Shown here in pieces: positions 18,153 to 63,119 of a stretch of 64,000 nt of DNA (position 1 is its first letter; the number at the start of each line of letters is the position of its first letter). A program made the position numbers and the translations under genes. The stretch comes from Rhina ancylostomus (taxonomy: Eukaryota), in assembly GCA_030265395.1 (NCBI GenBank), contig JARFYF010000029.1, positions 20,573,101 through 20,637,100 of the forward strand, written 5' to 3'. The notes under the pieces were generated by a model that ran no database searches, was not told the DNA's origin, and was given only the letters and a program-made list of their open reading frames with translations.

Positions 18153-20027
18153 GTATGAGAGAGAGAGGAGGGAGATTTTCAGTTGCCACACTGGGCTGGG
18201 ACACGGCTGTTGACCATGTAGTTTTTAGGTTATCTCTTTCTACCCCATTCCAGTCAACACAATCCTAAATAGGAATCAACCCTTCGTGAGGATATTATTT
18301 ATTGACCTTTAAATATACAAATCAGGGTCCTACATACAAACATAATTCTTGATCTGTCCAGGTTTCTAGGTTGAAGAAGTTCAAATACATCAGTGATAAA
18401 CTATTTTGATGGTCCAAAGGAAGCAGGAATATTCATCACAATAATGATGTGGATGCCTACCTCCCTGGACACACCCAAAGAAGTGCCTGCTGCCTCCACA
18501 GATGGGCCTGGCTGCAGGCTGGTTTGGCCCACAATCTGCCCCCATAGTGTGCAATCATGTTTATTATTAATTATTCATTCATGGGTTATTAGACCACACT
18601 AATTACCTCTGAAATGAGAAGGCAGTGAAGACTCAACCCTATTGGTACATCCGGAGGTACATAACAGCCAGATCAGGGTAAGAAAGGTAGATTTCCTTTC
18701 CTAAAGGATATTAATGCATGCCAGTCTGATAGTTTCATGCTTATCATCCTGCTTCAGGGCAGCAGACAGCTAGTGGCATTGTCATAAGGCTCAGGTTCAG
18801 AATAGGCTGAGCTGGCTGCTGAATTTAAAGTCAGATGGGCTCTAAATGGCCCTTCAGGAAAATCTCAGGTGACTCACAGCAGGAATTGCCTGGTTGAATT
18901 GTCTGAGTGATACGAAGTGGACCTGAACTGGTTGCATCAGACCTCACTCATAGAAAAATAGATTTTCAACTACATTACACTGTAAAAAAAATCTGTTGAA
19001 TTTCCAGACAATACCCTGGTTGCTCTTGGTGACAGGACCTCTTTCTTGTACTGTGGACAATAGGAAGTCTCATTTGGGTGACAGAAGAACCCTGTTTCAG
19101 ATTTATGAATTCAGCAATTACTTCTGAAACAATCACTAAGTACATTGTAATGAAAATCCCTTGAAATAATTAATAGCCTTTCTCTCCAGTGCACTAGCTA
19201 AGCACAAATGTAACACATGAAATAATTAACATTCGAAGTAACAATATGTTGACTATTTCTAACCTAGGTGTCAATTCACAACAGGCTTCAAGCCTACCAG
19301 CACAATTCAGTGGGGAACCAGGAATGTGCAGTCCAGCAAAGTACCCTCCTTAACATCAAGCAAGAAAACTCAACAGCATCAGGAGCTGTGGATCATCTCC
19401 CTGAAACGTTACTCCAGTGCCAACAGATTGTGAATGTCATTGTGCTCCCTGTGAAACCTGACAAGCTGGACAGCCCTCAGAATGAGACCCCCACTCATCA
19501 AATGGGAACAGACGCCAACTCCACCTGCTCAACACCTCAAAAATTAATTGAAGACAGGCTTCAAGGAACACCTGTGAANNNNNNNNNNNNNNNNNNNNNN
19601 NNNNNNNNNNNNNNNNNNNNNNNNNNNNNNNNNNNNNNNNNNNNNNNNNNNNNNNNNNNNNNNNNNNNNNNNNNNNNNNNNNNNNNNNNNNNNNTAGTGT
19701 AACTTTACATTGCACAATTTTAAAGCCAGATTAAGCATGTTTTTGATTCACAGGTCCATTTCTAACTAAATTCACCTTTCATTTATTCTTTTCCTATCAT
19801 TTAAATGGCAATTTTGTCTTTCTTTCTGTGGTACATTGACTTAAATCTCCAGTGGGCAATCATGGTGAATATTTTGCAATTAATGTTTTATTTTTCCAGT
19901 GTTCTCTGACCAAAGTTATCTCCCCCCTAGCCTCTAATCCTCTTTGCCCTAAATTCAGAATCAAGAATGTGGGATAGTCATTGCTTATGGCTGATTCTGT
20001 GGATAATGTCAATAGTTGGTTTACTTG

Positions 20028-41855: not shown

Positions 41856-41861
41856 TTTATT
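41856..41861 (-). terminator. Probable polyadenylation signal of the lectin gene
   Basis: AATAAA on the minus strand about 120 nt after the stop codon. Confidence 0.6.
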
Positions 41862-41977: not shown

Positions 41978-42051
41978 TTAGGCGAGTTTGTAGGTGCAAA
42001 TGAAAGGTAGATCTTCTGAACAGTCTGTATCACTCCATCTGCCTTTGGTAT
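41978..42051 (-). CDS. Terminal C-type lectin exon: (D)TKGRWSDTDCSEDLPFICTYKLA*
   Basis: Acceptor ttttttttattccag, phase-1 join. W-S-D-x-x-C and F-I-C motifs, stop TAA at 41980-41978. Confidence 0.95.
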
Positions 42052-43728
42052 CTGGAATAAAAAAAACTATGGCTGAGCTACAATAATCTTACAGATTGTT
42101 ATTCACCATTGGATCATACTGATGTGTGAAATGGTTTGATTTGTTTTCCCTCTATTTCATAGTGTGCTTGAGCATTAGTTTATGCTTTACATTCAGATCA
42201 AAGATTCCCATTTCCCAACAGAGCCCTTCAACATAAACAAAAACTTCCCTTCATCACAGGAAGAAAACGTGTCCATGATTTATAGGTCATTTTAGCAGTG
42301 CAATAAATGAGCCCTGTCTATGGGAAGGGAAGATTACTGGTCTGACAACAAATGTGGCCAAGAATAGAATCTTGTGAATACTTTGAAACAGGCTGGAGTA
42401 TATTTTACAGAAAGTATGACCATTGTTGTAGACACAAAGTGACTATTCCAGGAAAACATTTATTTAGTTGGAGATATATTTAATTGTTGCTGATTGAAAG
42501 GCGATAGAAAATGAGGCTTAGGAAAGTAGTCTTCTGATCCAGGCTCCATCTGGCAATCAGAGTCTGTACTGCCACACTGCCCCTGCCAAACCCCTGTGTG
42601 ATAGGACAACACCCCTAATTCAGAGAAGATAGCACTATCCCCCTTTCCCACCTCCAGCCAATCAGGACTGGTTATGTTACAACTATAAACAGTGCCACCC
42701 AGAATCTGGGCCTTGAAATGCCCTTGTTGCACATCCCCCATGATGCAGAATCCCATCTCCTGATCTCTCACACCCACAAGACATCATCCACCCTCTCAGG
42801 CTTTGATTTCCATCGTATCACTCAGGTTGCTTGTGCCTGAGAACCACAGTAAGAGGAGCTTTGCTGTCAAATTCTCCAAAGAAATATGTTCTTTTGGAAT
42901 ACATTCTTCATTTTCTGTCACTGCAAATGCTGCCTGATCAGCCAAGCATTTCCAGAATTTTCTGGTTTAATTTCCATTTTCCAGCAGCTATATGATCTTG
43001 CCTACAAGAAGCAGCCAGCTCAAACTTCCAAAATCCCTGTGTTCATGTAGATGACTCTGTCTAGTACCCACCCTAATCCTGAACATCTATCTTTAGATAT
43101 GGTCAGATCTGTTGACATATGCTTATGACCTAGAGGTCAGCAGTATGTTTTCTTTTGTCAGCTTGGCAACATTGACAGAAGGAAAATGCACTCTCCACAT
43201 CTTGTAACTTCAATATACAAGTCTGAGTCAGTTATTTATGTTTCAGCACAGGTTGAACTGGTATGAACCATATGGCCATCTTTTGTTTACTTAAGTTTTA
43301 TGAATCCTCAACTGATCCTACTGTTCATGTCAAAGGATCAAACTTTGATGTTATTGTGCTGTTTCTCGGACTAATGAAGATTCACTGCAAAGTAGTACCA
43401 GTCCCAAGCTATGCCTATAGATAAGCTGACAGGTGTATTCTGAATGAGGAATCTATAACATAGCACACTTGCATCAAAACTACTGAGGAGGTCTTTAGTA
43501 ATTTTCTTTGTGAATATTCCTCTGTCTATTTTGGACAAGATACTACCTCCGTTCCCAATGGACAAACTGTCAACCCATACAACACAGCTGCTTCTGAGTC
43601 TTTCTCACTCCATTGTCGCACATGGAAAGTTACTTTATTGCTTTAGTTTATCAGTCAGGTTCTCTAGTGTATCTGGAATTAGTTTGGATGAAAGTGCCTT
43701 TGAAATGCAGTCTAAAATGGTAACCTAC

Positions 43729-43840
43729 CTCCAGAATTAAAGCTCACACAGTTCTCATTTTCTTTTACATTGTCAGGCTGGTCATTGTTCCATTTTGTAA
43801 AATCTAGCATAGATCCATCACTCCACAGAAAAATACCCTC
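43729..43840 (-). CDS. C-type lectin domain exon: EGIFLWSDGSMLDFTKWNNDQPDNVKENENCVSFNSG
   Basis: Acceptor ttttttcacatag, 112 nt, donor gtaggt (phase 1). Contains WSDGS, W-x3-QPD-N and E-N-C-V motifs. Confidence 0.95.
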
Positions 43841-44022
43841 CTATGTGAAAAAATATATCATTATTTGCATGTCCCTATTTTTGTGAAAAACATGCAATGT
43901 GAACTGTCTATTTTCAAATGGATGATAACCTTTAATAAAAGCATAGCATTTACTATGAATATTTTAAGAGGCTTTGTGATAACACAGTAATATTAGGGCT
44001 ATAAGAAGCAAGGGAACTCTAC

Positions 44023-44163
44023 CTCATAGCAGTCACTAAGGCCAATCCAAGTGGTGGGTTGTGATGGGTCCTGTGCCTTAATCAGACTTTGAATGAATTG
44101 ATTGTGTTCATTCCAGTGGATGGAGGCAAGGTGGCCATTTGGCACATATTGCCGGCACTGTAG
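44023..44163 (-). CDS. C-type lectin domain exon: LQCRQYVPNGHLASIHWNEHNQFIQSLIKAQDPSQPTTWIGLSDCYE
   Basis: Acceptor ttttcttttccatgtag, 141 nt open frame, donor gtagag. Contains the HLASI and WIGL CTLD motifs. Not in the ORF track. Confidence 0.95.
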
Positions 44164-47029
44164 CTACATGGAAAAGAAAACATTTTCAGGAGTTTTTCTT
44201 TTTCCCCCAATTATCAAGCTCAGTTCTGTGCCTTGTTCTGTAATCAGTTTTTCACTGAAGAAGATTCCAGAGATTGCCAATCCAGAAATACTGCCCATTG
44301 AAAAAAAGCACATCATAGATTTTAACAAATTACAGTTATGATGTATGAAAAGCAACTCACAAATTAACCATAAAAAGCAAAGGGAAATACTGAAATATTT
44401 TGTCTTGAAGTTGGATTGCACCTTTCCTGGTCACTTGCTCTAAATTAGATCCCCCAAAGAGATCATCAAATTGGTTAAGAACAAATGTGTGTTAATGTGG
44501 TTTCCACTTCAGAAATTGCCATGACTTGCAACGTGCACGGATCCCAATGGGAAAAGCATTGCTGTAACACTGTTTCCACCATCTTGTGGACAACACTCAG
44601 GGGGTGGTGGGGTGGGCTGGAATCATCAGTCCATAAATCTCAAGAATAGCCAGACACTAATTGCACATAGACTTTCAAGGAGGAGAGGAAGATTGCAAAG
44701 AAGGGAGTTTCCACCATGTGTGTTTCTGTCCATCCTCCCAGGTTGCCTGCTGCATCTAGCCCCACATTTTGTTTTACCTCTGAGTGATTATTGAGTCCAG
44801 CACATTATTTTCTCATTAATTTGTGCACAGATCTTGGGACAATATTAGTCATGCTGATGTTACCTGAAGTGCCCAATCTAATTTTGTGATTGCTGCAATT
44901 TTGTTGAAAACGATTGCTAATCTGATTCACTCCAGGTAACAGCAATTTTGGAAAATGTAGCACTGGAAAAAAAAACATCCAATTTCTTGCTGTTACACTC
45001 TTAACATTTTAAACTTGCCCAACTTCCGTTCTTCTGAAAAGCTTTCAAGCACCAGATTCTTTGTCACTGGTACTGGACAGAATCTTAAGGAAAATGCAGA
45101 GGAGTAAGGCTTTACTGTCCATCTAAAGAAAACTGTGATTCATAACAATGTATCAGTGCTTAAATGAAACCAGAATTTTTGATATCTCTAGTGCCAACCC
45201 AATATCATTCCAAATTCAGCCACTCTTAAAGAATTTCCTAATTTTAGGGTTTTTTTTTCCATCACTTTGAATCTGTGCTTCATTATTATAATGTCAACAT
45301 TCATCTTGAGCCAATGATATGGTTTTATCTTTTTCATACAATTTTGATATATTTTTTGCCTTTCATTAACTCCCATTCATAGTTGAGGAATGGAAGTTTC
45401 TCAATCTTACGAGATGATTTGGTCTATAAATGCCAGGCACCAGATAGTTACTCTTCTTGGTCCTACATCTCCTTTCAGTCTTGGAGATCTGAATTGGATA
45501 CATCACTGAAATTACAGACAGACTTTCTCCACGATATCATCCAGTCTAATAATCAACACTGTAACTTCAAGGTTTACAGCAAATAGCATCAATATAGAAA
45601 GTAGTAAGCACAAGGAAATTCAGAACTATAGTTTCAGAACTTACAACTGTTGTCAGTACCAATGCTGAGACCTCCCAGCCTTCAAATATATTATCTTGAT
45701 TATCTTTATTATTTATTAATTGATTTTGTTTTTGGTCATTCTCAGTGGTAATTGATTGAAGGGCATGCTATTATCTCTTTGAATATAACATTGCATTTAA
45801 CACTAGTGAGAAGAGAGAAATGCAGGGAAAAGCAGCTTTGTGATCATCAAAAGGAAATTATGCAGCAGCAGCAAATTCATGCAGGTGTGGAGTTAATTTT
45901 CAGTCAGCCACTGGAACTGACGCTTTCCTCAAACCTTTGTATTAAATGCTTATACCTTCCAGGGCTTCTAAGACCTTTCAGTCTGTTTCCTCAATGTCTG
46001 TGAGCCCAGAGAACCAATGGTTAGCATCAGTGGCTATCAGGCATGATAACCAAAAGTCCTGCTGCCCCTACTAAGTTGTCCATCGGTATCCTCCTTGGAA
46101 ACCTCATTGATTAGCTTTAGGCCATTTTGCAAACACATGCTGGAAACAACCCTTTCTGGAACATTGGCTTCAGTTAAACAACTGCCACCTCAGTTCTAAG
46201 GTCCCAGTCATACTCATCTTCTGGCATCATACTGGAGTAAAATAGTGGGATCATATGGTCTTGGCTATGAATGCAGTAATCAAGGAGGAAGAGGAAGTAG
46301 TTCTGAGAGTATTTCTGGAGAATATAGTTGGAGATTTCTGTTGAAGTTTCTGATGTCTTCCCCTACTGTGAAGAATGAACAACTTCCCAAAAGGGTCAGA
46401 GATTTCTTGACCAGAGGAGTAGAGCTCAGTATTGAGTGATTAGGAGAAGCAAACCATTAAAAACAAATCTAACTGTGTACTGTGAGTCCAATTTATTGAA
46501 ATCAATTGTTGATAATCATGAGCTGCTGTCAACAAGTTCTCCTGAATGACCTCATCTTCCTCCTCATGTTTTCAAGGTAGCCTGAAGCTGGTTTGCTGTT
46601 GTGCTGGTACTGATGAGGGCCGCAAAGGGGGAACTACTGGGTGTGATCAAATGATGAAGGGTCTACCCTATTTTCTTCATCTTCACCCAGATGGGCAAAC
46701 CCCTTCTGAATGGTACTGATAAAAAAACATAGCATTAATTCAGCATTTCATAAGAATTCAGCATTCAAGGCATCTGAAAGGGACCTTAAAATCCAAATTT
46801 TTGCAGTATTAGAATATGGAGAGTTCAAAAGAGGTCATGATACTCATTCTCTGTTACTGATTTTGGGTGAGTAATATTAGCTGGATTAGGAAATGAAAGA
46901 TCTTTGACCTGAAAAGTTAACACTATTTCTCTTTCCATGGATGTTGCCTGACCTGCTGTTTGCAGTATTTTGTTTTTTTTAATTTCAGGTAGCCAGCATC
47001 TGTAGTGTTTAATTTTCAATTACTGCAGA

Positions 47030-47740
47030 ATATATCCTCCAACCATTAATTCTCTGACTTAAGACTGCGGGTATTGCAGATTACATTGTATGTGAAGTCT
47101 ATCTGAACTATTCCTTATTGGATGGTGTCCAGCAGATTACTCGATGTAACTGAGGGTAGCTGAGGCCACCTGAGGCCCAGGAACACCAAGTCTTTGCCCA
47201 GCTTCTAGGAGAGCTCCACAGCATGTCTTGTGGAAGCATCGTCTTGTCTTTGATTAGGATTAGAAGGTTATTTTTGCCTAGATTTCTGGGTCAGTCTGTT
47301 GCCTCCTCCTCTGAAAAGAGTAAGAAAGCAGCTCTGTAGTTTCGGACTGTGTTAGATGGATGTTAGGTATTGTAGACTAAATACTGTGATCACTTTCAGG
47401 GGTCGGAGTGGAATCTTCGACTTGTTACAAAAATCATCTAAAGTTTTTCTCACTATTTTCTTTCATTTTTTCTAGCATCTTCAAGGAAATTCTGGGTGGT
47501 GGATGAAGGGGAAATACGTACAGAAGTTATATCATAAACTTGGGGTTTATGGGCCCAGGATATTAAGGTGATGACACCTCCAAATTTTAACACCTTTCAG
47601 ACAGCCTCAGGTGGCCTCAGCTACATCAAGTAATCTGGCTGGACATCATCTGATAAGGAATAGTTCAGATAGACTTTAGATCAAATGTAATCCGCAATAC
47701 CTGTGATCTTAAGTTGGAGAATTAATGATTGGAACATATC
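47030..47740. mobile_element. Non-autonomous DNA-transposon-like element with ~140-bp terminal inverted repeats
   Basis: 47030-47176 and 47604-47740 are reverse complements (aagtctatctgaactattccttat / ataaggaatagttcagatagactt; gctgaggccacctgaggc / gcctcaggtggcctcagc). Confidence 0.8.
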
Positions 47741-48329
47741 CATGTAGCACTTTGTTTTCTTACATTCAGATGCAACTTGACTTGCATGGTTATTGGGTAC
47801 TATTGGGTTGAAGAGTGAAGCCCCCATGGTTGAATAGGTTGCTCATACACAACAAATGGCACAGAGTAGGTAAGGCTTTTGAAATGATTATGTTTTATGA
47901 CTTTGAGAAAGGGCAGAGATGGCAGGGGAAATTACAATAATACTGTGAATCCAATAGTTCAGTACCTTTTTTTGTGGCATTAATTAACTGAAATGAATCA
48001 AGCTGGAAACAAACCAGGACTTTGAGTGAACCTTTCACCATTCTAATTCTTCTCTGTTCATAGTAATGCTAATTTTGTGGGAGAAATTGTAAACCAAAAT
48101 AAAAAAGGTTAAAATTAACCTCTAATATGAGAACTTACCAAGATGTCAATGGCATGTTGATACCTATCATACCAGCNNNNNNNNNNNNNNNNNNNNNNNN
48201 NNNNNNNNNNNNNNNNNNNNNNNNNNNNNNNNNNNNNNNNNNNNNNNNNNNNNNNNNNNNNNNNNNNNNNNNNNNNTCAATGAAATTTGGGACAATTTAT
48301 ATCCATTAAAATTGTCAAACATCAACAGA

Positions 48330-49020
48330 AACCAGAAACTCAAACAGACCACCTTGTAGCGTCTGCATCTACCTGAGCAAATCAGACACCGGGGAATTCA
48401 TAAATGAGCGGCTCACATCCTAATGCTTCCCAAGGATTTTCTAATATGAGTATGCCACAAGTCAGATGTGTGATGGAATATCTTTCACTTTTCCGAATGG
48501 AAGCAACTGAGAAAACTCAACACCTTTCTGGACAAGGCATCTATGTGATCATGTTCAGCCTGTAAATCTGTTCCTTCCAACGTTGCTGAAAAGTAACTAT
48601 TGTCAGTAAGATGGAGAGTCCATCCTAAAAAAAAAGGCAGTGTTTCCATTATAGGATTGGGTCAGCAGTCCATTCAAGCATAAGGTGGAGAGTCCATTCT
48701 GTTTTATGGCAGACATTCCATTCTAGGATATGGTGGAGGTTCCAGTGTAAGATAGAGCAGAGAGTTCATCCTAGGCAGAGGATGACCTTCAAACCCTTAA
48801 CTTTTAATATCCAACAAGGACAAGAAAAACTGACACAGGGGAGGATGGTCACTTTCAAATTCCCATCAGTGTCACATACCTTTCTTATTTGGTGACTGTT
48901 GTCATTGTTTCATTGTCAATGGGTCAAAACTCCAGAACTCTCTACTTATAAATGCAAGTACCCTCACTACAAAGATTGAAGTTGGTATAAAAGGCATACT
49001 TCCTTTGTAATGAGAGCAAT
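48330..49020 (+). mobile_element. CR1-group LINE 3' fragment interrupted by the repeat relic
   Basis: cacaagtcagatgtgtgatggaatatc before 48600 and ccttcaaaccc...gggtcaaaactccagaactc after 48785 are successive parts of one LINE tail. Confidence 0.7.
48600..48785 (-). pseudogene. Intronic decayed copy of the octapeptide repeat
   Basis: Minus strand reads PRMNSLL-YLTLEPPP-YPRMECLP-*NRMDSPP-YA*MDC*P-NPIMETLP, matching exon units such as YPRMDPPM and YTGMDSPP but with stops and a frameshift. Confidence 0.8.
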
Positions 49021-49087
49021 ATCAGCACAATATCCCAAAAATCATCACATTAAACAAAAGGAAAATATCAGGATTATTTTGCCTTAC

Positions 49088-52000
49088 CTCAGCTTCTAAC
49101 CAGGTTACCTTCATCTTAGTGAAGAATTGATAACAAGATGACAGATAGATGTAATGAGTCCATCCAGGTAGACAGGATTGTTTGTATTGCTGGACTGGTG
49201 TTTCTGAATGAGATGCAACCTTTATACTGAGATTAGGATAAGAGTCATCCAGTTTTTGTTTCATAGCAGAAAAACGTGGATATGCTTTTTCATGGTATAA
49301 TGGAGCTGCCACTTCAGGGTGAGTTGGGGATAATGCTTCAGGGTTGAGTGGATGTTTAGTTTCAGGATGTGATCCAACTTCAGGATAAGATGGAAGTTTA
49401 CCTTTAGAGTAAGCTGGAGGTTCTATTTTGGTATGCAGTGGATGTTCCAATCCAGGATTAGGTGGTGAGTCCATTCCAGTATATGGGAAGGGTTCCATTT
49501 TAGGATGCAGCAAAAGTTCCATTTTTGGATACATTGGAGGATCCATCCTAGGATAACCTGGATGTTCCATTTTGGAATATGGTTTATGTTCCACATTAAG
49601 ATGAAGGGATGATGATATTCTTTTAGGATCAGGGATAAGTACCACTTCAGAATAAAGCTGTGATACCCCATCAGGATTGGGCAGAGCTGTCCCCTTGAGA
49701 TTCAGCTGAGGGGGTATTTCAGGGTTTAGCTGATATATCATTGCAGAATTGGTTGGATACGTCATTTCAAACTGAGGGTGAGATGCTACTTCTGGATTAG
49801 GTGGAGACACCACTTCCAAGTAAGAAGGAGATTCCATTTCAAGATTTTCCAAATGTGCCATGTTAGCAGAAGATGGGGATTCTGCTTCTGGAGAAAATTG
49901 AGATACCACTTCAGGGTAAGGTGCTGACAGTATCTTAGAATAAGACCGAGGAACTGCTTCAGGATTAGTTAAAAGTGCTGGTTCAGCAGAAGGCACTTTT
50001 GAAGGAAAAGTTGGAGACATTACTTCAGGAACTGGCTGTGTTCCCACTTCAAGGTCAGATGAAGACATTTCTTGGGGATGAGGTGGAGACATCACTTCCG
50101 CATAAGGTGGCGGCATCACTTCGGGATAAGGTACGGAAATCAGTTCAGAAAGAGATGGAGGTATCACTTCATTAGTACTCAGAGCCACTCCAGCAGGCAA
50201 AGTTGAAGACATCACTTTAAGTGAAGGTGGAAGGACTATTTCAGGTGANNNNNNNNNNACAGAGATACCAGATTGATTGATGGCAGAGGTGCTACTTTAG
50301 GTGATAGTGGAAGAGAAACATTGAGTGAAGATGGAGGTGATCCCAGAGGTGCCACTTCAGAGGTAGGGGGAGATACTGCATCTGGTGACGATGGAGGTGC
50401 CACCTCAGGTAATTGTGGAGATGACACTTTAGGTGTTGTTGAAGATTCCCCGTCAGGCAAATGTGGAGGTGGCACCTCAGGTGATAATGGAGATGCTCCT
50501 TCAACAGATGATGGAAGTGTCACCTCGGGAACTGGTGGAGGAGGCACTTCAGAAGAAGACAGAGGTGCCACTTCGGATGGTGGTGGAGGCGCCACTGTAG
50601 GAGAAGGCAGAATTGTTGCCTCAGGAGAATGAAGAGGAATCATTTTAGGATCAAGGAGAGGTAATTCAAATGAGGGAGGAGATGCTATCTCAGTTACTGT
50701 CAGAGATGCCATTTGAGATGAGGGTGGAGTTCCTACCAAAGGTACTGGTGCTAGTTGGGGATGCACTAATTCTGGTATTATTTCAGGATCAGCCAGAGAT
50801 TTAATGTCACCAGATGTCACTTCAGGTGCTGACGGAGGTGGTACATTGAGTGAAGGTGGGGATGGCAATTCCAGTGTAGGTGTCACAGTGAGTGAAGGTG
50901 GAGGAGCTGCTGCTACAGGTGAAGGTGGAGGAGCTGCTGCTACAGGTGAAGGTGGTACATTGAGTAAAGGTGGAGAGGCTGATTCAGCCGAAGGAGATGT
51001 CCCATTAGATAATGGCAACATTGCTACTTCAGGTGCAGGTAGAAGTGGTGCATTGGGTGAGGATGGCAGTGGTATTCTAGGTGAGGAAGGTGGTGGCACT
51101 CCAGGTGTAGATGGAGATGGCATTTCAGATGAAGGTGGAGATGGCAGTTTAAGTGGAGGTGACGTTTTGGGTGAAGATGGAGATGATGCTACATTGGGTG
51201 AACTTGGAGCTGGTACTTCAGGTGAAGATGCAGGTGAAAAATTGGGTGAAGATGGAGGAGGCACTTCAGGTGAAGATGGAGAAGGCACTTCGCGTGATGA
51301 CAGAGGGGGCACTTCAGGTGAATATGGAGGGGGCACTTCAGGTGATGATGGAGGGGGCAGTTTGGATGATGATGGAGGGGGTGATGCAGGTGATGATGGA
51401 GGGGCCGGTTCGGGTGACAATGGAGGGGGTACTTCAGGTGGTGATGAAGGGGGTGGTGGGGGTGGTGATGGAGGGGGCAATGCGAGTTGTGATTGGGNNN
51501 NNNNNNNNNNNNNNNNNNNNNNNNNNNNNNNNNNNNNNNNNNNNNNNNNNNNNNNNNNNNNNNNNNNNNNNNNNNNNNNNNNNNNNNNNNNNNNNNNTAA
51601 TGTACGGGGCACTTCAGCTGATAGAGAGGGTGCTCCAGATGATGGAGGGGGCATTTCTGCTGATGACGAAGGGGGCACTTCACATGATGATAGAGGAGGC
51701 ACTTCAGATGGTGATGGAGGGGGTATATCAGCTGATGACGGAGGGGCCAGTTTGGGTGGTGATGGGGGGGCCGGTTGAGGTGGTGATGGAGGGGCTGGTT
51801 TAGATGATGACAGAGGGGCCGGTTCGGGTGACGACGGAGGGGCTGGTTCAGGTGGTGATGGAGGGGCTGGTCTGGGTAGTGATGGAGGGGCCAGTGCTGG
51901 TGGTGACGGAGGGGCTGGTCCAGGTGGTGACAGAGGGGCCGGTCCGGGTGGTGACAGAGGGGCCGGTTTAGGTGCTGGTGCCACTTTAGGGAAAGCCTGA

Positions 52001-52622
52001 GGTGATTCTTTTGTAGGCAGTGATGGTTGCTCAGGTGAAAGTGCTTGTACCACTTTAGGATTATGCGCTGCTTCCTTTTCAGAAGAAATTAGAGCTATCC
52101 TTGAAGGTGAAGAAGGTAACTTCAATTCAGGATAAAGTGAAGGTGCCATTTCATGATATAGTAATGTGTCCTCTTCAGCATTAGGCTGAGATACTGCATC
52201 AGAATAAGAGGAATACATTAATTTTAAAGAAGGATAAGATGGTAATTCAGCACGATTGCCTTGTCCTACTTCATGATTTCTTTCAGGGCCCAGTTCACCA
52301 TCCATTATGGGACTAGTTTCATGATCAGGAAGTGATTCCGTCATGTAAAGTGCTCCTTCCGGATTGGATTCTTTTAATTTTTCATTCTCATGAAAAGCAT
52401 AAGCTGATTTTGAAGGATAATGTTGAGTGTAACTTTGTTTGACATCCGCATAATCATGATAAAGTACCACTTCAGGATAAGGATTTGATGCTAATTCATG
52501 ATATGGATGCTGAACTTGTTCATTATTGAAATAAGGATTCACAAGCTTCTCGTTTACTGGATATGCTCGCTGTAATATTTGCCGCTTCTTCAACATGCCT
52601 GACAATTTTCGAATATCGAAAG
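49088..52622 (-). CDS. Giant coding exon (~3.5 kb): Pro/Ser/Glu-rich octapeptide repeat region plus N-terminal part of the C-type lectin domain
   Basis: Acceptor ttcttttttatttaatcacag. ORFs 50236..52674 and 49022..50215 join across the 10-N gap (SPEIVLPPSLKVMSST continues open after it). The exon ends SCLPGWTHYIYLSSCYQFFTKMKVTWLEAE|gtaagg (phase 0), a typical CTLD start. Confidence 0.9.
49300..52150 (-). repeat. Coding 24-bp (8-aa) tandem repeat array, consensus approximately SPEVPPPS / YPEMEPPP
   Basis: Plus-strand units such as cacttcaggtgaagatggaggagg recur every 24 nt, most homogeneously at ~51200-51980. An exact 27-bp duplication lies at 50892-50945. Confidence 0.9.
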
Positions 52623-53039
52623 CTGTGATTAAATAAAAAAGAAAGCTGAAATAATCACAAACTGAAATTCCCACTGATACTATCTCTCCATGCCAGTTTA
52701 AAACACATGCCAGATGTCCTATTTAAAAAGAACCCAAATTATCTATTACTAGCAGACTCTGAATGTTAGCTGCAGGGAAAATTTTAAAAGATGAGTTCTT
52801 TTTAATTACCCATGAATCAATATTTTTATTAGCATAATAGAGTAATTAATATCAAAGCCTGAAGCAAGGTTCATATGACTTCTGAAAAGTACAGTACTAT
52901 TCAGCTACCTCTGATGACAAATGCATAGGCATTTACACTTTCATTGACAGTTAAAGTTTACTTAAATTGAAGTTAATCAATTAAATGAATTAAAATTATA
53001 CTGCATTTTTTAAACTCTTGAATTTAATATACCAATGTA

Positions 53040-53330
53040 AGGTCATAGAGTTATATAGCATGAAAACAGGCCCTTCAGCCCAACTCATCCATGTCGACCA
53101 AGTTGTCTACCTGAGCAAGTCCCATTTACTTTTGTTTGGGCCATATCCCTCTAAACCTTTCCTATCCTTGTACCTGTCCAAATGTCTTTTAAATGTTGTA
53201 ATTATACCCACCTCTACAGCTTCCTTTAGCAGCTTGTTCTGTATACCCACCACCCTCAGGCCCCTTTTAAATATTTCCTCTCTCACCTTAAACCCATGCC
53301 CTCTAGTTTTAGACTCCGCTACCCTGGTTG
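53040..53330 (-). mobile_element. CR1 3' end
   Basis: catagagttatatagcatgaaaacaggcccttcagcccaac...ctcaccttaaacccatgccctctag. Confidence 0.85.
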
Positions 53331-54119
53331 AACCTGATAAATTATAAAGCTTAATATTTTAATTTTAATGCAAAGAGCATTTCAAATGAAATCCTGAAAT
53401 TAGTGATGCTACTTGTACAAGTAGAGGTATTATTAGTTTTCAGAGAATAAATAAAATTTATTAAAATGGCCCAAAATAAAATCAAGATAGATTGATTAAT
53501 TTCACAAAAAAGATTATTCTCCTAAATACTCAAGTGAAAAATGCTGAGTACATATCTTCCAAGTGTCAATCTAAATGGCATTCTGGAAAAATAACTAAGT
53601 GGAAGATGTTCACTAATACTTGGACATAAATTGAACAGTATTTGCTGAACACTGCACTAGAACAGTTAAATGCAATAATTGCCAGTTTGCTCTCTGAAAT
53701 ACCCCAGTTCACTGTGGGATGCATGAAAATGGCATATCGCTGTTATAGGAGATTTCACTCTTTGAATGTCAAGTGAGTCTACAATCATCCACTATAGATT
53801 ATGATCATCAATGTTCAATACCCGGGTAGTGCCCTGGTTTCTTAATACCTTTGCCCCAGACCAAATAGTGAGTACTGAAAGAGCAAGGGCTATTTGCTTT
53901 GTAAAATTGTGGAGCAGGCTTTTCCATTCTTTACGCTAAGGAATCTGTTCTTGAATCTTGTATCAGATTAGATCTGATGCAAAAACTGTGTTCGCATTCA
54001 AATGAATGTTAATTGTAGTGTTATGAAGAAGAACTAAGTAGGTTACATTGATTTGATTTATTGTGTTTCATTCAATGTTTTAAGTGTAAAATGAAAGTGT
54101 TTTAAGTGTATTTAGTACC

Positions 54120-55400
54120 ATGATTACAATGAACAATCGAGGTCCTTGACCAAGCGTTGGTAAGTAGGTAATTGGTGAGTAAGTGCCATTGGATAACACT
54201 GTTGATGATTCCTTTTCATCACTGCTGATGCTGATGAAGCAGTGGTTGCTAAGGTCAATTTGAGCTGCCTTTAACGTACACAGAGTGCAGTCTTTGAGTT
54301 GGTGCTTGTGAAGGATAAGTTCAAATGATACTACCTAATCAGGAGAGGTGGCCGCCTTCTTCTGGCAGAGGTAGCTCAACAGCTTCAGGACCCATCAATG
54401 AAGAAAGGATAGGGTTTAGCTCTCTTGTAAAGATTGAATAGTTACTGGACAGTTTGAAAGCATCTGACATTTGTCATACAAAATGTAGAACTTGAACTAG
54501 AAGTAAGAAAGGAAAAAGGAAGAAATCCTGTAGAGCATCTCCTTCAGCACTAACAGTCACCATGGCCTTCTCTATCCTCATGATAGCCAGTATCGTTTGT
54601 TCAAAGAGACAAAGTGTGCAGAGAATATTAGATACTTCTCTGCATGGAGTTAGATTGAGACTTTGCCTGCAAGAAGTATATTAGTAACAGACTTGTGAAA
54701 AATTGAGTGAAAATGCTATGGTAATATTCACATAAAAGATGTGAACAACTGTTGTTGAAAAAGTATTGAGTATGTTAGTAAAAAGAAAAGGATGTGTAGT
54801 GGTTCACTGTTTTGTAGGAAGCAGGGAGATTATTGAGAATAATGAGGCTGTAGGTAGTCCAGATGTAGAAGGTGATAAGGGAATAGCTTTGCTGCCATTG
54901 TAGCCATGCCCTTGGCTCCTGAACAGAACAAGGTCTTTCTTTCCCAGCAGCTGAATCAGGTTCTCTTATCAGAATCAGAAAACCTATTGGTCCCCCTTCT
55001 GGCATTTCTTTCTTCAGAATTTTGCTATTTTTTATGTGGGCCAATTGAAGAGTTCACCAAAGAGGTGCTGGCTGCACACATATGATATGAGATTCTTGTC
55101 TCCTACATCCTAACTTAGAGTACAAAAAAAGGAGGGGAAATCAGACGTTTCCTTCTGCATGCTGGCATGGGCTGCTTCATTTGCTGAGGTGAATTAAATT
55201 GAATATTGTGGAAGCATTGTTACATATTCTGATTTCTGATGTTATGATGGACATATGGTTATTAATGAAGCAGCTGAAGATGGCTGGGCCTGGCATAATT
55301 CCTTAGATTTCTCCTGCAGTGATATTGTAGAGCTGGGATAACTGACTCACTTTCAGCAACCTTTGTGCAAGGTATGACTGACCAGTAGAATACTTTCCCT
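54120..55400 (-). mobile_element. CR1-group LINE fragments (same family as 48330-49020)
   Basis: aatgaagcagctgaagatggctgggcct...tcctgcagtgat and related RT remnants. Confidence 0.6.
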
Positions 55401-55479
55401 TTGCACTCTCCTCACAGCTCACAAAACCATCTAGATTTGTATCATAGACAAACTTGGATTCATGACACTTGCCCCCCCT

Positions 55480-58400
55480 CAAAACAAACCCCTGATATAG
55501 ATTATGAAAAGATGGGCCCTAGCAACAATCACTGTGGCAACCCTCTAGTCACAGCATCATCATCTGAAAATGATCCATTTATTCCTATCCTCTGTTTACA
55601 ATATATTTTCTAAAACATAAATTCCCAGTCCTCACCAAACTTTGTTTAACAACAGCAGCTTATCAATGGCCTTCTGAATGTCCAAAGCCACCATATGCAT
55701 TGGTTCTTCCTTATTTATTCTGTTAGTTACAGCCTTAAAAACCCTTAATAGATTTGCAAGCATAATTTCCCTTTCATAAATGCAAATTGACTTTCCTCAA
55801 ATTTATCATTATTTTCCAAGTATCACCTACTAGTAGATTCCTGCATTTTTCCTTCTGCTGATACCAGGCTGAATGGCCTGTTCTCTCTTTCTTTCCTTTC
55901 TTAAACAGTGGATTACATTTGTTATCTTCTAATTCAGAATCAATAGAATTTTGGAAAAATCCACTGTTTTCATTCCCACTTCTTTCAAAATCTTGGGATG
56001 TGGAGCATCAGATCCTGGGGTCTTATTGGCTTTCAGTCTCATAAGCTCTTCCAATAATGTATTTTATTAATGCTAATTTCATTCCATTCTTCATTCACCT
56101 TCAACCTGCTGTTCATCATTACTAGTTTTGTTCTGTATTTTCTCCATGAAGGCAAACACACAATATTTCTTTTTTTGCCATTTCTTTATTCCCCAATATA
56201 ATTCCTCTTGTCTCAGTCAACAAAGGACATAGATTAATTTCTGGTAATATGTTCATGTTTACATGTCTATNNNNNNNNNNNNNNNNNNNNNNNNNNNTTT
56301 CTTAGAATAATCCCACGTTCTACTTTCTTGTATCAATTTCTTTTAATGAGGAATTAAGAGATAGTATAATTCTGCAGAAGCAAACTAAATATAGCAGAAA
56401 TGGAAGGGAATCAAGGGTGCAATGAATGTGAGAAAGTTAATATTACTAAAGAGGAAGTATGAAAGAAATGAATAGCAATTCAAACAACACTGCGGACGTG
56501 CACTTACGGAATAGAAGCAGGAGTAGGCTATTGCCCCTCAAGCCTGCTGTGTCATTCAATAAGAACCTGGCTCATTTGATTGTAATCTCAACTCCTCATT
56601 ACTATCCCCTTGCTTGTTTAAAAAAAATGTCTTAAAAATATTCAATCATTGACTTCAGCACCATTTGAGGAAGAGAAGTCCAAAAGACTCACAACACTCT
56701 GAAAATTATTTTAAAGATTTGCCTTGTATCAGTCTTAAATGGGTGACCTCTTATTTTAAACAGTAACCCCAAGTTCTAGGTTCACCCACAAGAGCAAACA
56801 TCTTCTCCACATACACCTGTCACAACCTTTCAGAATTTTATAGATTCCAATCCAATCCTCTTACTTTTCTAAGCTCCAGTGGATACAAGTCTAACCTGTC
56901 CCTACCTTTTCTTATTAGACAACCCACCTCATAGCCTGCATCTGATGAATGAAGAGATAATAGATGTATTAGTCATGATTTTCCAAAATTCCTTACATTT
57001 TGTAAGCTTGACAGCTGTTTGGATCTTTGCAAATGTAACACTGCTATTTAATAAGGGAAGAAAAAATTGTGACTCATGGACCGGTTAGCCTGATATTCAT
57101 TATTGGCAAGTTGCTGGAATCCATTGTTGGCATTAACAGTCTATATGAACCAGGCAGAGTCAACATGGTTTTATGAAAGAAAATGTTGTGTTTTACATAT
57201 GTGATAGAGTTTTTGAGGGTGTAACTAACAAAAGAAGAACCTTCCTGGAACTGAACCTGCCCCCAGATCCCTCTGCTCGTCTACTCTGCCACGTACCTTG
57301 CCATTTACCTCGTACTCTGCCCTGGAGTTTGTCCTTCCAAAGTGTACCACCTCGCACTTCTCCGGATTGNNNNNNNNNNNNNNNNNNNNNNNNNNNNNNN
57401 NNNNNNNNNNNNNNNNNNNNNNNNNNNNNNNNNNNNNNNNNNNNNGGACAACATTGAGGAGGGGCATAGATAGAGTGGACATGAAATATCTTTGTCCCAT
57501 TATTGAGTGTTCCAATAGCAGAGGGCATGCATTTAAGGTGAGAGGGGATAGGTTCAGAACAGATGCGAGGAGTACATTATTTACTCAGAGTGGTGGATGT
57601 CTGGAATGCGTTGCCTGATAGGGTGGTGGAGGAAAATTCATTGGGGGCTTTTAAGAGGGGCTTGGATGTGCACATGAATGAGAAGAAAATAGAGGGATAT
57701 GGGCATTCTGTACATAGGAGAGATTAGCAATGTTGGCACAACATTGTGGGCCGAAGGGCTTGTTCTGTGCTGTACTATTCTATGTTCTGTTATTGCAGGA
57801 AGTTTTGATTTTCAAATGCCATTTTAAAAGGTATCACATCAAAGATTATTCCATTAAAATAAGGCCTCAGAGTTTGTGGGCAACCTATTAGTACGGATGG
57901 AGAACTGGGTTGGAAACTGGATGGGAATAACAAGAATGTTACTAGTGGAAGATTGTTATCAATGGGGTACTGATAGTCCTCAGCTTTTTATGTCCTCTGC
58001 AAGCAGCTACTGATTAGCCCACCTACATTCTTGTCCTAATCATTTATATATGTGACTTGGATAGGAATGTGGATGTGCTGATTGGTGAATTTGCAGAGGA
58101 TGTGAAAATTAGTGGTTTTGGATAGTTAGGAAGGTTGTCAAATGATTCAGTGGGATATAGACCGGTTGGAAATATGGGTGGAGAAATGGTAGATGAACTT
58201 CAATCCTGATATGTGTGAGGTGTTAGTCTTTGTGAGGTCAAGTCTTGAGGTCAAGAGGAAAGTACACAGTAAATGGCAGAACCCTTTGGAGTATTAATTA
58301 CTGAGGGATCTTGGGGTGAAAGTACCCAGCTCCCAGTAAGTGGCAACACAAGTGGATTGGATGGTAAAGAAGGCGTGCGTAATACTTGTCTTTATCAGTT

Positions 58401-61290
58401 AGGGGATTGAGTGTAAAAGTTGGGAAGTCATGTTGCAGCTGTATAAAACTTTGGTTAGACCACATTTGGATTATTGTGTGCAATTCTGGTTGCTGCATTA
58501 CAGGAAAGATGTGGAGGCTTTGGAGAGGGTGCCAAAGATGTTCACCAGGATGTTGCCTCAATTAGCGTATTAGTATAAGGAGAGTTTGAACAAACTTGGA
58601 TTGTTTCCTCGGGAGTGTCAGAGGCTAAGGGGTGGTGATGAAGTATAGAAAATTATGAGAGGCATAGATAGGGTAGATAATCAGAATCTTTTTCCCAGGG
58701 TAGAAATGTCAAATACAAGAGGGACTAGCTTTATGTTGGGAGAGGGAAAGTTTAAAGGAGATTTGTNNNNNNNNNNNNNNNNNNNNNNNNNNNNNNNNNN
58801 NNNNNNNNNNNNNNNNNNNNNNNNNNNNNNNNNNNNNNNNNNNNNNNNNNNNNNNNNNNNNNNNNNGGAGAGGGAAAGTTTAAAGGAGATTTGTGATGCC
58901 ATTTTTTTACTCAGAGAGTGGTGGGTGCCTGAATGCACTGCCGGAGAGGTGATGGAAGCAGATACAATAGCAACATTTAAGAGACATTCAGACAGACACA
59001 TGAAAAGGCAGGAGTTTGAGGGATATAGGCCATGTGCAGGCAGATGTGATTAGCTTAAATTGGCATCATGGTTGGCACAGGCATTGTGGGCTGAAGGGCC
59101 TGTCCCTGTGCTGTACTGTTCTATGTTCTAATTCATAGTAATGATTTAGTTGAGTACAATATGTTACAAAGCTACTTGGGAAAGTTGGTGAGTCGTAAGG
59201 AGTAAACAAAGATCCTGCAAAAGGCTAGAGACAATGGGCGAGGTGGCAGTGGAAAAATGTGAATTTTTTCCTCCGTGGTGAGGTGGATGAAAAATATTGG
59301 TGTATACAGAGATCTCAATGTATGGGTTCATGAGTTGCAGAAAGTGAAGACACAAAGCAAGTACTTAAAAAAACAATTGATATGAAAAGCAAAGAAAATA
59401 CAAGTACTGGAAATCTGAAATAAAACCAGAAAATGTTGAAAACACTCAGAAGATCAAGCAGCATCAGTGGAATGTCAAACAACTCTGTTTCTATTTCCAC
59501 AGATGCTGCTGACCTACTGAGTGTTTGCAGCATTTTCTAGTTTTAAAGCAATTGACATGTTAGCCTTAACTATAAGAGGAATGGAATACAAAAAAAGAGA
59601 AGTCCTACTTAAATTGTGCAGGACTTCAATGAAAATAGACTTGGAGTAGTGCATGCAGGTTTGGTTTTAATGAAGACAGTATGTACTTAGAGCCAGTGCC
59701 TTATGTATTCATTGAGTCTGTTACTGGAACAATGGAGGTTGTCTTAAGAAGTGTAACTGAACAAGGTCAGCCTTTACTCACGAGACATCAAAAGAATGAG
59801 AGTTGACATGATTGAGATATATAAGATTCTAAGAGAGGGATTGAAAGGGTAGATGACCAGAGCCTGCTTCCTCCATCTGGAGAGTCTAGATCTAAGGGGA
59901 CAGTCTCAGGGTTACTGGTTTGATATTCAAGGCTGAGATTAGGAGAAATTTCTACAAACAAAATTCTCCTGTCCAGAAAGTTCTAACTGATCAGTCAGCA
60001 AGTATATTCAAGGCTAAGGTTAATAGATTTCTTGATTTGGGGATGGAACAGTAAAGTGGACCTGACACACAGTTCAGCCATAGTCTTATTGAATTTTGGA
60101 GAAGGCTCAAGCTTACTCCTGTTTCTATTTCTTAAGTTCCCGTGCTCTTATTTCACATCCAGCTAAACAGTTAAAATGAGCCTCACCCTATCATATTATC
60201 TGAAGGATGGTATATCCAACAATGCAGTGGACCAAGTATGTGGTGCTATATGTAGTGTGTCAACTGTGTAGCATTCTTATCAGTATTTCCTCATACTGTT
60301 AGCTCCCAATGGATGGTAAATAAAGAAAATTCTGAAATGCTGTGGCTTTAAAAACAATTTGTGTATTCTAATTGAGGACCAAGGACCATTGACTAATATT
60401 AATCTTACTGCACAACTCCAAAGTACAAGAGGTCATATCTCATTATATTTCCATAACAAATGCACCATTTCACATATTTGTTAACCTACAACCTAAATGG
60501 TAATTTCCATCAACATATTTTCATTAGTGGCATTTGAGAAAGCTAGGCAATAACAACACACCTGCAATATTGACCCCAAACATCTCTCAAAACTAAATAG
60601 CTGTGAGAATAGATGGGATAAATAAGGGGGGACTGGTGAATATGGCATATTTGATTTTTCAATAAGGTCCCACACAAGGGGATGGTCAACATGATCAGAG
60701 CAGACTGTTGGAGGTAGTATACAGACATGGAGGGAAAATTAGTCATCAGAAAGCAAAGAGTGGATATCAACAGATGTTTCTTGGGTTTGCAGGCTGTGAC
60801 TAGTTAGTTACCACAAAGAGTGGGGCTTGGCCCATTTGTTCATCATCTACGTCGATAATTGTGTGAAGGGGCCAAATGTCATATTTCCAAGTTCACTGAT
60901 GATTTAAAACTAGGTGGGATTGTGAGTAGGGAAGAGAATGTAAAGAAACTTCAAAGTGATATCAACAAGCTGATGCAATACAAGGTAGAAAAAAGAAAGC
61001 AGAAAAATTGAATACTTCTTTAAATGCTGAGAGATTGGGTAATGTTGCTGTTCAGAGGGATCTAGGTATTCTTTTGCCCAAGTCACTGAAAGCCTACATG
61101 CAGATGCAATAAGCAAATAGGAAGACAAATGGTACCTTGGTGTTTATTTTGAGAGAACTTCAGTACAGGAGTGACGATGCCTCACTGAAGTTATAAAGGG
61201 TTTCAGTGAGACTGTACCTGGGGTCTCATATATTGTTTTGTCTCTTTACCTAAAAAAAGGATAAGTTTGCTACAGAGGGAGTACAGTAAC
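55480..61290. mobile_element. Cluster of nested CR1 fragments in both orientations filling the first coding intron
   Basis: NPEKCEVVHFGRTN (57225..57515 -), RGIDRVD...RGHAFKV (57298..57618 +), long RT-to-tail copy at 58040-59130 (+), further copies at 55480-56330 (-), 59150-60140 (+) and 60560-61290 (+). Confidence 0.85.
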
Positions 61291-61392
61291 AATTCAAAGA
61301 ATCAAAACAGTTCCTTATCATTTTATACTGGAATTCACTTCTATTTACACACATCACATTTTCTTCAAAGTTAACAAACTAATTGTAATTAC

Positions 61393-61447
61393 CTGCAGCA
61401 TCAACTAAGAGCCTTGCACTGATCAGAAGAATGATCCTTAATATCAT
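61393..61447 (-). CDS. Coding exon 1 (signal peptide MILRIILLISARLLVDAA) of a proline-rich C-type lectin gene
   Basis: Minus strand: acceptor ttttgtttttcctttcag (exon starts 61477), ATG at 61447 with A at -3, 18 mostly hydrophobic codons plus G, then donor GTAATT. The phase-1 end joins the acceptor at 52622 to give ...DAA-AFDIRK in frame. Confidence 0.85.
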
Positions 61448-63119
61448 ATTTGTACCATGAAGTTCTTTTCCTGCAGCCTGAAAGGAAAAACAAAATTTTA
61501 CATTAATATGTTTAAAAGTAATTAGTGTGAAAAGAGAGAAATTCCAATCCTGTTCCAATATCTTTTCTCCAGTCTACAGAGTGATAGTTTACATTGGTAA
61601 TTATATATACATCAGGTCTGCACCACATTTGAAAGCACAGAAATTTGATACAATTGGTAGATCGACACTGATGTCAAAACAACTACCAGCCAGTATTTGC
61701 TTCTTATTGGAACTGAGGGAAAGAAGAGGTGGAGTTTTCACAGTACAACTGGAGTGCACCTTAGGTATTGCGATACTTACAATATATCCCAAATGTTTTA
61801 GTCAGATCATTAATCAGCACATGTTCCAAGTGGGATCAAGGAGAAAGCTCCATTTCTGCTAACATGAGACTTGGAACTAGACCTTAAACAATCATTCATC
61901 TCTCTCTGTTGGGTCACTCGCCATTTTAGTCATCAGTAGCCTGTTAACTATTTAATAGTCTGAAACACTGAACAAAATTGCGGTACAAACTATTTTTATT
62001 TAATGCAAAAGCCATAGAAAAGCACACCATGAAACAAACGAAGGTAATAATTAACTATAATGTCATTACGTTTTTGGATTTTATTTCTTTGTGACCGTCA
62101 GTTGCTGCCTTATTTTCACATGAGAATACAGGAAATCAAGTTCAAAGCAACTGCCAATAAGGTATATAGGAGCCAAAAGACACTACAAATCAAATTAAAC
62201 CTCAACAAATGATAAAGAGTTAAGGTTAGAAGAGTGAAATCAATTGTTGATTTTAAAACAAATGTGTCGAGTTGGTTTGATCTTCAGTGGTTAGTGTTGG
62301 TGAAAAATGGAAACTGGAAAACAGTGACTGCTGCATTTGGTTTAGAGACCTTTCGTTAGCAGGAATTAAAACAGAGATAAAGGTTATATAATTCTGTAAC
62401 AATGAAGCAGCCCAAATCAGAATAGTGGATAGCAAGAGGCACTAATGTTTCATGTGAAGAAGGAAGCTTCAACAGTGGTCATAGCTAATAAAGAAATGTC
62501 AATAATTAAAAACACAAGACATTGAGGATGTACAAAAGATGAGAGAGATTATGAGAGGCAGAATATGTTAGAGTACATATAATAATTTCCTTCACTAGTG
62601 ATCTACTTTGCTCTTTCCAAGGCATCCCATAAAGCTATTGCAACACTCTATATTGAGTATGGTGCAGCTGGAGTCCAATGTCTATGATCACATGACATGT
62701 CATTTCTGTAAATATTGTTGAACAGGGATCCCAAGCTTGTTTCTTCAAGGTCTGAAACATTTTGCTCCCTTCTTTGTGTTGCCTTCTACTTATCCTGACA
62801 AAGAAGCAGTAAAACATTATTAACGATAGAATTTTTGAAGTGAAAGTGATTACATACACCACAGAACAGACCTTAGTGCTTTTAATGTTTTTTAAGAAAA
62901 TTTTACAGAAAACGTTCAGCTACCTTTAAACTACGAAGTCAGTCAGTGGAACAGGAACATCCACCAATTAGCTATGCTCTCTGAACTGGACGATGTGTTT
63001 GCTTGCAGCCCCTTCCAGATTTTTTTTTATTTCTAATGGGTCATGAAGGCATCTTCTGGGTAAATGGGAATTTGGTCTGGAACTACTAGTGCTTTATGAT
63101 GTCCAAGTCAAACAGGATG

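Follow-up and report, generated by a model that had tools for sequence, protein, structure and literature searches.

The window analysed, a 64,000-nucleotide stretch of Rhina ancylostomus DNA, carries on its minus strand a lectin gene of five coding exons with canonical AG/GT ends, all at the coordinates originally proposed. Coding exon 1 (61447-61393, 55 nt) encodes a predicted signal peptide of 18 aa and ends in a phase-1 donor; compared over 27 codons with the stingray orthologue described below, it showed 74% identity. Coding exon 2, the giant exon (52622-49088, 3,535 nt including 110 N, phase-0 donor), encodes the stalk and, at its 3' end (49088..49177), the first 30 aa of a C-type lectin domain (CTLD). 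The rest of the CTLD is encoded by exon 3 (44163-44023, 141 nt), with the first helix Cys, the WIGL motif and an extra seventh Cys, exon 4 (43840-43729, 112 nt), with a QPD motif followed downstream by Glu-Asn-Cys, and the last exon, exon 5 (42051-41978, 74 nt), with WSD instead of WND and a TAA stop. The intron phases are 1,0,0,1. Lectin_C was matched exon by exon (exon 3 E 1.9e-5, exon 4 E 0.012, exon 5 E 0.015), and an AATAAA is found at 41861, past the stop codon. Directly upstream of coding exon 1, near 61477, a pyrimidine tract with AG resembles an acceptor, which suggests a possible non-coding first exon. The exons, the Lectin_C matches and the translation, which contains no hydrophobic anchor, bear out the original prediction of a signal peptide, a single terminal CTLD and no transmembrane segment, and the whole stalk indeed lies within one exon.

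The predicted in-frame joining of the five exons held for the coordinates and splice ends, but not for the sequence as assembled: the coding exons add up to 3,917 nt, with a shift of frame at a 10-N assembly gap (50249-50258). A frameshift or stop in the gaps had been named beforehand as evidence against the gene. A contig from a related species (DNA run X2) bridges the 10-N gap and restores the frame there, with 493 bases compared to 492 in the window despite a 9-base deletion elsewhere, so that the gap corresponds to about 20 bases in the related species with the frame kept. The stingray protein is continuous through the positions of this gap and of a second one, of 100 N (51498-51597). The latter was spanned by neither of the two sequence runs compared, and the protein is therefore given as about 1,300 aa or somewhat more. 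In all three sequenced stretches of the giant exon one frame is free of stops, whereas the remaining two on that strand contain 13-39. Against run X2, 8 of 28 changes in the central block of the stalk were silent (32% expected, p = 0.71) and none created a stop, and all four indels outside the 10-N gap were multiples of three (9, 3, 3 and 72). This block is thus read as a region whose sequence drifts while its frame persists, the pattern of a spacer. Both runs cover introns and behave as DNA contigs, and they therefore carry no evidence on expression either way.

The stalk has the predicted length of about 1,150 aa, but the uniform Pro/Ser/Glu repeat that had been described turned out to be three compositionally distinct blocks. 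Block 1 (52021..52622, about 200 aa) is rich in Tyr, His and charged residues, non-repetitive and present in one copy only in the genome, and its first 60 aa share 80% identity with the stingray. Block 2 (50259..52020, about 550 aa plus the 100-N gap) consists of 35% Pro and 20% Ser, nearly lacks Tyr and has an 8-residue (24-nt) period. Block 3 (49178..50248, about 355 aa) is Tyr/His/Met-rich and built of 8-residue repeats, [SP]-P-P-Y-P-[EKR]-[VM]-E, with a period that is also found in four relatives, including stingray and sawshark. Two dibasic sites, KKR at about residue 30 in block 1 and KR at about residue 980 in block 3, are both kept in the stingray. No acceptor-like site was found anywhere within the giant exon (15+ pyrimidines and 8+ T of 20), and hence none of the kind upstream of the CTLD that the original prediction had listed as a danger to itself. 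The Gly/Glu-rich open reading frames at 50249-51800 on the opposite strand are the Pro/Ser repeats read in reverse complement.

All four complete CTLDs tested have seven Cys and a pI of 4.5-4.65. AlphaFold2 modelled the CTLD of the sawshark orthologue confidently, with pLDDT by block mostly 83-97 and 68 in one loop, and its repeats without regular secondary structure; this fold was made from a 23-row alignment, whereas a 9-row alignment gave a pLDDT of 46.6. The best Foldseek matches, at 30-37% identity, were lithostathine (top, E 2.6e-14, 30% identity), a snake galactose lectin and the aggrecan CTLD, a similarity that is generic, as dozens of CTLDs matched at 25-37% identity (ovocleidin-17, 28%). 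In single-domain sequence comparison the aggrecan CTLD was the best match (79.7 bits), above REG. The Atlas clusters closest to the CTLD (0.94) carried the name REG4 or were generic CTLD clusters, which we take as a lead only; a search there with the first 200 aa gave no usable match. In galactose-type Ca2+-dependent lectins, QPD is paired with WND. This pair was present in none of the orthologues or the paralogue: window and sawshark have QPD/WSD, the stingray QLN/WNE, the paralogue QPE/WDD and the catshark QPD with a broken end. In no orthologue is the predicted sugar site perfect.

Protein searches with the CTLD, which scored 46 and 53 candidates, and with the stalk pointed to elasmobranch relatives. 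The stingray protein XP_059832435.1 (Hypanus sabinus), a computed gene model auto-named 'mucin-2-like', is continuous over 1,406 aa, with Lectin_C (PF00059) as its only annotated domain; its CTLD is 80% identical to that of the window, and the stalk parts are 56-58% identical. In A0A401Q343 (Scyliorhinus torazame) and UPI00398EB393 (Pristiophorus japonicus, automatically named 'brevican core protein-like'), a CTLD with 72-77% identity follows the same 8-residue Pro-rich repeats. The three proteins are likely orthologues, judging from these alignments. The two shark records (285 and 364 aa) begin at an internal Met, do not have a signal peptide and look 5'-truncated; the full giant size was observed in rays only (window and stingray model). 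A search of 1.84 billion proteins with the final 384 aa encoded by the giant exon returned four proteins, three of them from named elasmobranchs; no bony-vertebrate relative of the stalk was among these matches, although low-complexity relatives could escape such a search. The predicted giant proline-rich lectin gene is real and shared by rays and sharks. A shorter paralogue (about 380 aa) lies head-to-head with it just beyond the window edge. BLASTP gave no significant similarity between the N-termini of the two (E 1.5); a match was seen for the signal peptides only, with 44% identity over 27 residues (E 0.003).

The gene is located on C29, between an IQSEC gene (Sec7; IQSEC3) and a PARP12-like gene. 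The HMG-CoA synthase genes are on C104 and C1, which does not agree with the REG4 synteny (HMGCS2/PHGDH/NOTCH2). The LMF2/NCAPH2/CHKB locus, which holds ovocleidin-17 in birds, is on C51 and contains other, short lectins. In a CTLD tree built without REG, PRG2, OC-17 and CLEC19A sequences, the window lectin grouped with the lectins of this locus (98/96). The first of the three CTLD introns precedes C1, the second follows WIGL and the third separates C2 from C3. These are the group VII positions that had been predicted, but they are common to groups VII, XII and antifreeze-like lectins (PMC514892) and hence not diagnostic of group VII. As the intron positions agree equally well with REG, EMBP and antifreeze-type lectins, and the gene lies at neither the REG4 nor the ovocleidin-17 locus, 'REG-like' here describes ancestry and not membership. 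The proposed growth from a small REG-like gene is accordingly upheld as descent from a short lectin, since short relatives with the same introns are present in this genome, but not as descent specifically from REG, given the shared introns, the other locus and the higher aggrecan score.

We regard it as rather probable that rays and sharks have here an intact, conserved gene derived from a small three-intron soluble lectin, in which the second coding exon grew into a stalk of 8-residue Pro-rich repeats, and that the product is secreted and serves as a long spacer, tipped by the lectin domain, in a gel or matrix outside the cell. The signal peptide would be removed, and convertases may cleave the two conserved dibasic sites. 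From its composition, the Pro/Ser block would form an extended rod, probably O-glycosylated or phosphorylated, whose length and composition may matter more than its sequence. The flanking Tyr/His/Met blocks could, again by composition, serve chain association or cross-linking. Ca2+-dependent anchoring of the chain would fall to the acidic CTLD, with a protein or surface a likelier target than galactose, and the spare Cys of this domain may join heads by a disulfide. A more specific proposal, which we consider possible but doubtful, is a structural family of three-block polymers restricted to cartilaginous fish, whose flanks would cross-link through Tyr/His on either side of a Pro/Ser spacer and whose lectin heads would be joined by disulfides. 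It would share its origin with the lectins of the ovocleidin-17 locus and be co-secreted with the paralogue for egg jelly, egg case or enameloid. If this is true, lectins of egg or mineral matrices were already present in the earliest jawed vertebrates.

Within the spacer reading, a narrower and in our opinion unlikely variant would make the product a biomineral matrix protein of enameloid, denticle, tessera or otoconia that regulates crystals in the manner of SM50 or ovocleidin and has a phosphorylated, acidic tail. The net charge of -49 of the window stalk and the CTLD pI of 4.65 are consistent with such a role, but the sawshark repeats are net neutral. S-x-E was mildly enriched in the window and stingray stalks (21 compared to 13.5 expected, 17/500 shuffles; 18 compared to 13.0, 34/500) and unenriched in the other three of the five orthologue stalks. 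Lithostathine as top fold match also agrees with it, yet that match is generic; the tree groups the protein with ovocleidin-17-locus lectins, but the gene lies outside that locus. SM50, perlucin and ovocleidin-17 have been cited as mineral-matrix C-type lectin proteins (PMC8144736).

Quite unlikely, in our view, is an EMBP/PRG2-style pro-protein, in which the stalk, as a pro-piece, would keep a small defence lectin masked and in store until cleavage frees it. EMBP is cationic, whereas the CTLD here is acidic, leaving no cationic domain in need of masking. The conserved KR site could release the last ~330 aa, but a dibasic site directly before the CTLD is absent. The paralogue, with a stalk net charge of -14, has a Glu/Asp-rich stretch in exactly this position, and an acidic neck together with the same introns defines group XII (PMC514892); nevertheless the WIGL motif, also kept in the paralogue, differs from the WIGG of EMBPs, and the 80%-conserved N-terminus and conserved 8-residue period exceed the needs of a disposable pro-piece. 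That the giant exon was misread, the real product being a short lectin skipping the repeats or the locus being broken, would fit the frame break at the 10-N gap but is very improbable, as this exon contains the start of the CTLD and no acceptor-like site, its frames are open across 3.4 kb and bridged in frame by the relative, and the stalk is conserved in the stingray.

Our sequence and literature searches produced no named vertebrate gene of this architecture, in line with the original prediction. In the literature covered, mainly open-access journals, neither a description of the giant lectin protein nor the identifiers XP_059832435.1, A0A401Q343 and UPI00398EB393 were found. Within eight supplements of PMC13188829, lectin, mucin, brevican and proline were not found. 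A0A401Q343 was absent from the text and one supplement of a shark skin mucus proteome (PMC10707392), which is a weak blank. On the searches made, the gene is unstudied so far. The catalogue of matrix proteins from the egg case, jelly, skin and enameloid of sharks and rays is poor, and incorrect names ('mucin-2-like', 'brevican-like'), gaps in assemblies and truncated gene models keep such proteins out of sight. The present gene provides a concrete candidate, with its orthologues, its paralogue and sites open to testing, and an example of how a small lectin gene may become a large spacer protein via repeat growth within one exon. That short lectins occupy the ovocleidin-17 locus of this genome questions the view of those genes as specific to calcitic-egg layers (PMC8144736).

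Among known systems, lecticans (aggrecan, brevican) likewise have a long low-complexity region before a C-terminal CTLD. They combine a Link/Ig N-terminus and Ser-Gly sites with an EGF-CTLD-sushi end, and their intron positions differ from those of the window gene. Lectican identity was rejected, as Lectin_C is the only domain, without link, Ig, EGF or sushi domains, and Ser-Gly sites in the stalk are not enriched (3 compared to 4.0 expected). In gel-forming mucins a Thr-rich PTS region is flanked by VWD and further Cys-rich domains; the MUC2-type label of RefSeq was rejected, with only PF00059 in the stingray protein and, in the stalk, one Cys and 3% Thr. In SM50 the CTLD is N-terminal. SM50 of sea urchins, also Pro-rich, and bird ovocleidin-17/XCA are mineral-matrix CTLD proteins (PMC8144736). 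Ovocleidin-17 has about 150 aa and 28% identity to the sawshark fold query, and membership in ovocleidin-17/XCA was rejected for this stalked protein, with its gene on C29 and the ovocleidin-17 locus on C51. Group VII (REG/lithostathine) and antifreeze-like fish lectins share the signal peptide, single CTLD, lack of an anchor and three introns, but group VII is a CTLD alone without a neck; the window protein adds the ~1,150-aa stalk, the QPD motif and the extra Cys, and is not at the REG4 locus. Group XII (EMBP/PRG2) likewise has a signal peptide, a terminal CTLD and identical introns, with an acidic neck in between (PMC514892). The neck of the window protein is far longer and made of Pro-rich 8-mers, its CTLD is acidic, and the fourth position of WIGL, Gly in group XII, is Leu in all complete orthologues and the paralogue. 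As a neck is already known in group XII, the giant layout represents the extreme of a known design.

The window contains a conserved open gene that encodes a leader, a three-block stalk and a C-type lectin domain (CTLD). Its five exons were found on the minus strand (C29:20573101-20637100; genome size 2.2 Gb) as originally predicted; they are bounded by AG/GT, and the intron phases are 1, 0, 0 and 1. A hydrophobic leader of 18 residues comes from exon 1. The 3,535-nt exon 2 carries the opening 30 residues of the CTLD at its 3' end; exons 3 to 5, each matching Pfam Lectin_C, supply the remainder. An AATAAA lies 117 nt beyond the stop. In each sequenced part of exon 2 one frame was free of stops, compared to 13-39 stops in the other two. 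An out-of-frame upstream ATG was also observed (window 61458-61444, minus strand); the ORF it opens has 4 codons, and its stop shares bases with the main start codon. Intron 1 carries very high-copy repeats at 52839-53505 and 56841-59508 (contig depth >50,000).

In-frame joining of the exons, also part of the original prediction, did not hold in the assembly: the exon lengths add up to 3,917 nt, with a frame shift at a 10-N gap (50249-50258). DNA of a related species bridges this gap. The contig of run X2, a DNA run from that species, has 493 bases over 49900-50391 in comparison to 492 in the window, with 10 extra bases at the gap and a 9-base deletion elsewhere; the gap therefore corresponds to approximately 20 bases in that organism and the frame is kept. 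The other four indels within exon 2 (9, 3, 3 and 72 bases) were all multiples of three. No bridging contig was found for the 100-N gap at 51498-51597. The stingray (Hypanus sabinus) protein XP_059832435.1, 1,406 aa and annotated as 'mucin-2-like', aligned with the window ahead of the two gaps, in the stretch separating them and beyond them. With gaps of 20 and 100 bases the predicted product is 1,308 aa; the stingray protein measures 1,374 aa when counted from its second Met. Its residues 1-32 precede the signal-peptide Met as extra sequence and probably come from a mis-joined exon.

Searching with the C-terminal 384 aa of exon 2 retrieved the stingray protein at 47% identity. A full HMMER scan of 1.84 billion proteins found four proteins: the stingray protein, a contig protein (P0011), the sawshark 'brevican core protein-like' UPI00398EB393 and the cloudy catshark A0A401Q343. 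CTLD identity to the window was 80% in stingray, 77% in sawshark and 72% in catshark. Both shark records begin at an internal Met, without a signal peptide, and look truncated; giant size is therefore demonstrated in rays only. In these two models the loss appears to be at the 5' end, and the C-terminus of the catshark model is aberrant.

Tyr, His and charged residues are abundant in the first stalk block (~200 aa), and its first 60 aa share 80% identity with stingray. The second (~550 aa) has 35% Pro and 20% Ser with Tyr nearly absent, and the third (~355 aa) is rich in Tyr, His and Met. A period of 8 residues ranked first or joint first in all five orthologue stalks. Thr makes up only 3% of the stalk, a single Cys is present, and no Ser-Gly enrichment was found in it. 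Of the 28 substitutions that separate run X2 from the window, 8 were silent (32% expected, p = 0.71), and there were no stops; the stalk sequence drifts while the frame is kept. The stalk's only dibasic sites, a KKR at about residue 30 and a KR at about residue 980, both recur in stingray. S-x-E motifs showed a mild excess in the window and stingray stalks, with no enrichment in the other three orthologues.

AlphaFold2 gave a confident CTLD for the sawshark orthologue (23-row alignment). In Foldseek, lithostathine, snake galactose lectins, CEL-I and aggrecan ranked closely (26-37% identity), and by sequence score aggrecan (79.7 bits) exceeded lithostathine (64.8) and REG4 (57.5). With a pI of 4.5-4.65 the domain is acidic, and seven Cys were counted in all four complete domains tested, the odd one directly after WIGL. 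At the sugar site, window and sawshark read QPD/WSD, stingray QLN/WNE and the neighboring paralogue QPE/WDD. Galactose binding usually requires both QPD and WND, which makes conserved sugar binding doubtful.

Judged from the sequence, the product is probably a gel or matrix scaffold. It would be secreted and possibly cleaved at the two dibasic sites. The Pro/Ser block would form an extended modified spacer, chains may associate via the Tyr/His/Met blocks, and the CTLD head would anchor the chain in a Ca2+-dependent manner, with the spare Cys perhaps dimerizing heads. A role in mineral matrix in particular is unlikely, and an EMBP-style pro-protein seems slightly less likely again. That the gene model is an artefact is very improbable.

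A head-to-head paralogue of ~380 aa lies just outside the window at C29:20656588-20667340 (plus strand; window-scale 83488-94240). Its signal exon (83488-83542) is followed by a second exon of 254 codons (88118-88881) and CTLD exons up to ~94240, all on the plus strand, giving a signal peptide, a 224-aa neck (Pro/Tyr, then Glu/Asp-rich) and a CTLD. This CTLD is 54% identical to that of the window gene, with the extra Cys in the same place. By 150 and 86 selected ORFs scanned, the lectin pair is flanked on one side by a Sec7-domain IQSEC gene and on the right by PARP12-like (winged helix, CCCH, WWE, PARP), SLC6A, FAM180 and SLC13 genes. The exons for Sec7 and IQ are located 37-73 kb to the left of the window, and the gene is probably IQSEC3; an ORF at window 19268-19699 (plus strand), running into a 116-N gap, resembles the C-terminal exon of IQSEC3. 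HMG-CoA synthase, a REG4 neighbor, sits on contigs C104 and C1, and the window gene on C29.

At C51:17394000-17430000 at least three short lectin genes have the same introns as the window gene. A choline kinase gene is 13 kb off on one side, and NCAPH2 and an LMF gene are 0.55 Mb off on the other; carnitine acyltransferase was not among the matches listed for C51. These genes are among the flanks in the ovocleidin-17 (OC-17)/REG figure of PMC8144736, and that paper describes OC-17/XCA as specific to calcitic-egg layers. The C51 neighborhood matches the bird/reptile OC-17/XCA neighborhood, which suggests a candidate OC-17 locus older than amniotes. The assignment of each flank in the figure to the OC-17 or the REG locus is our assumption. 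In a 32-row CTLD tree that left out REG, PRG2, OC-17 and CLEC19A, the window gene and stingray paired (98/93), which makes a ray the likely host, and the window gene, paralogue, C51 cluster and a C112 lectin grouped together, apart from 23 other CTLDs (98/96). The C112 gene (C112:66696500-66699600) also encodes a short lectin with three introns, and its calcium loop is degenerate. Separately, at C68:5039000-5093000 at least six CTLD exons without introns follow one another, two of them in open frames of 777 and 1,683 codons; they may be parts of one multi-CTLD gene.

The gene is real and conserved, and apparently unstudied, as no description of the protein was found in the published literature searched. 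Three introns at these positions are common to groups VII (REG/lithostathine), XII (EMBP/PRG2) and antifreeze-like lectins, and XII is told from VII by an acidic neck, according to PMC514892. Since those groups have the same three introns, the window gene belongs to the wider VII/XII/antifreeze-like stock, but it lacks some defining features of each named group. It likewise lacks defining features of mucin-2 and of the lecticans, after which its orthologues were named. The gene is an extreme variant of the neck-bearing soluble lectins and not a new class.
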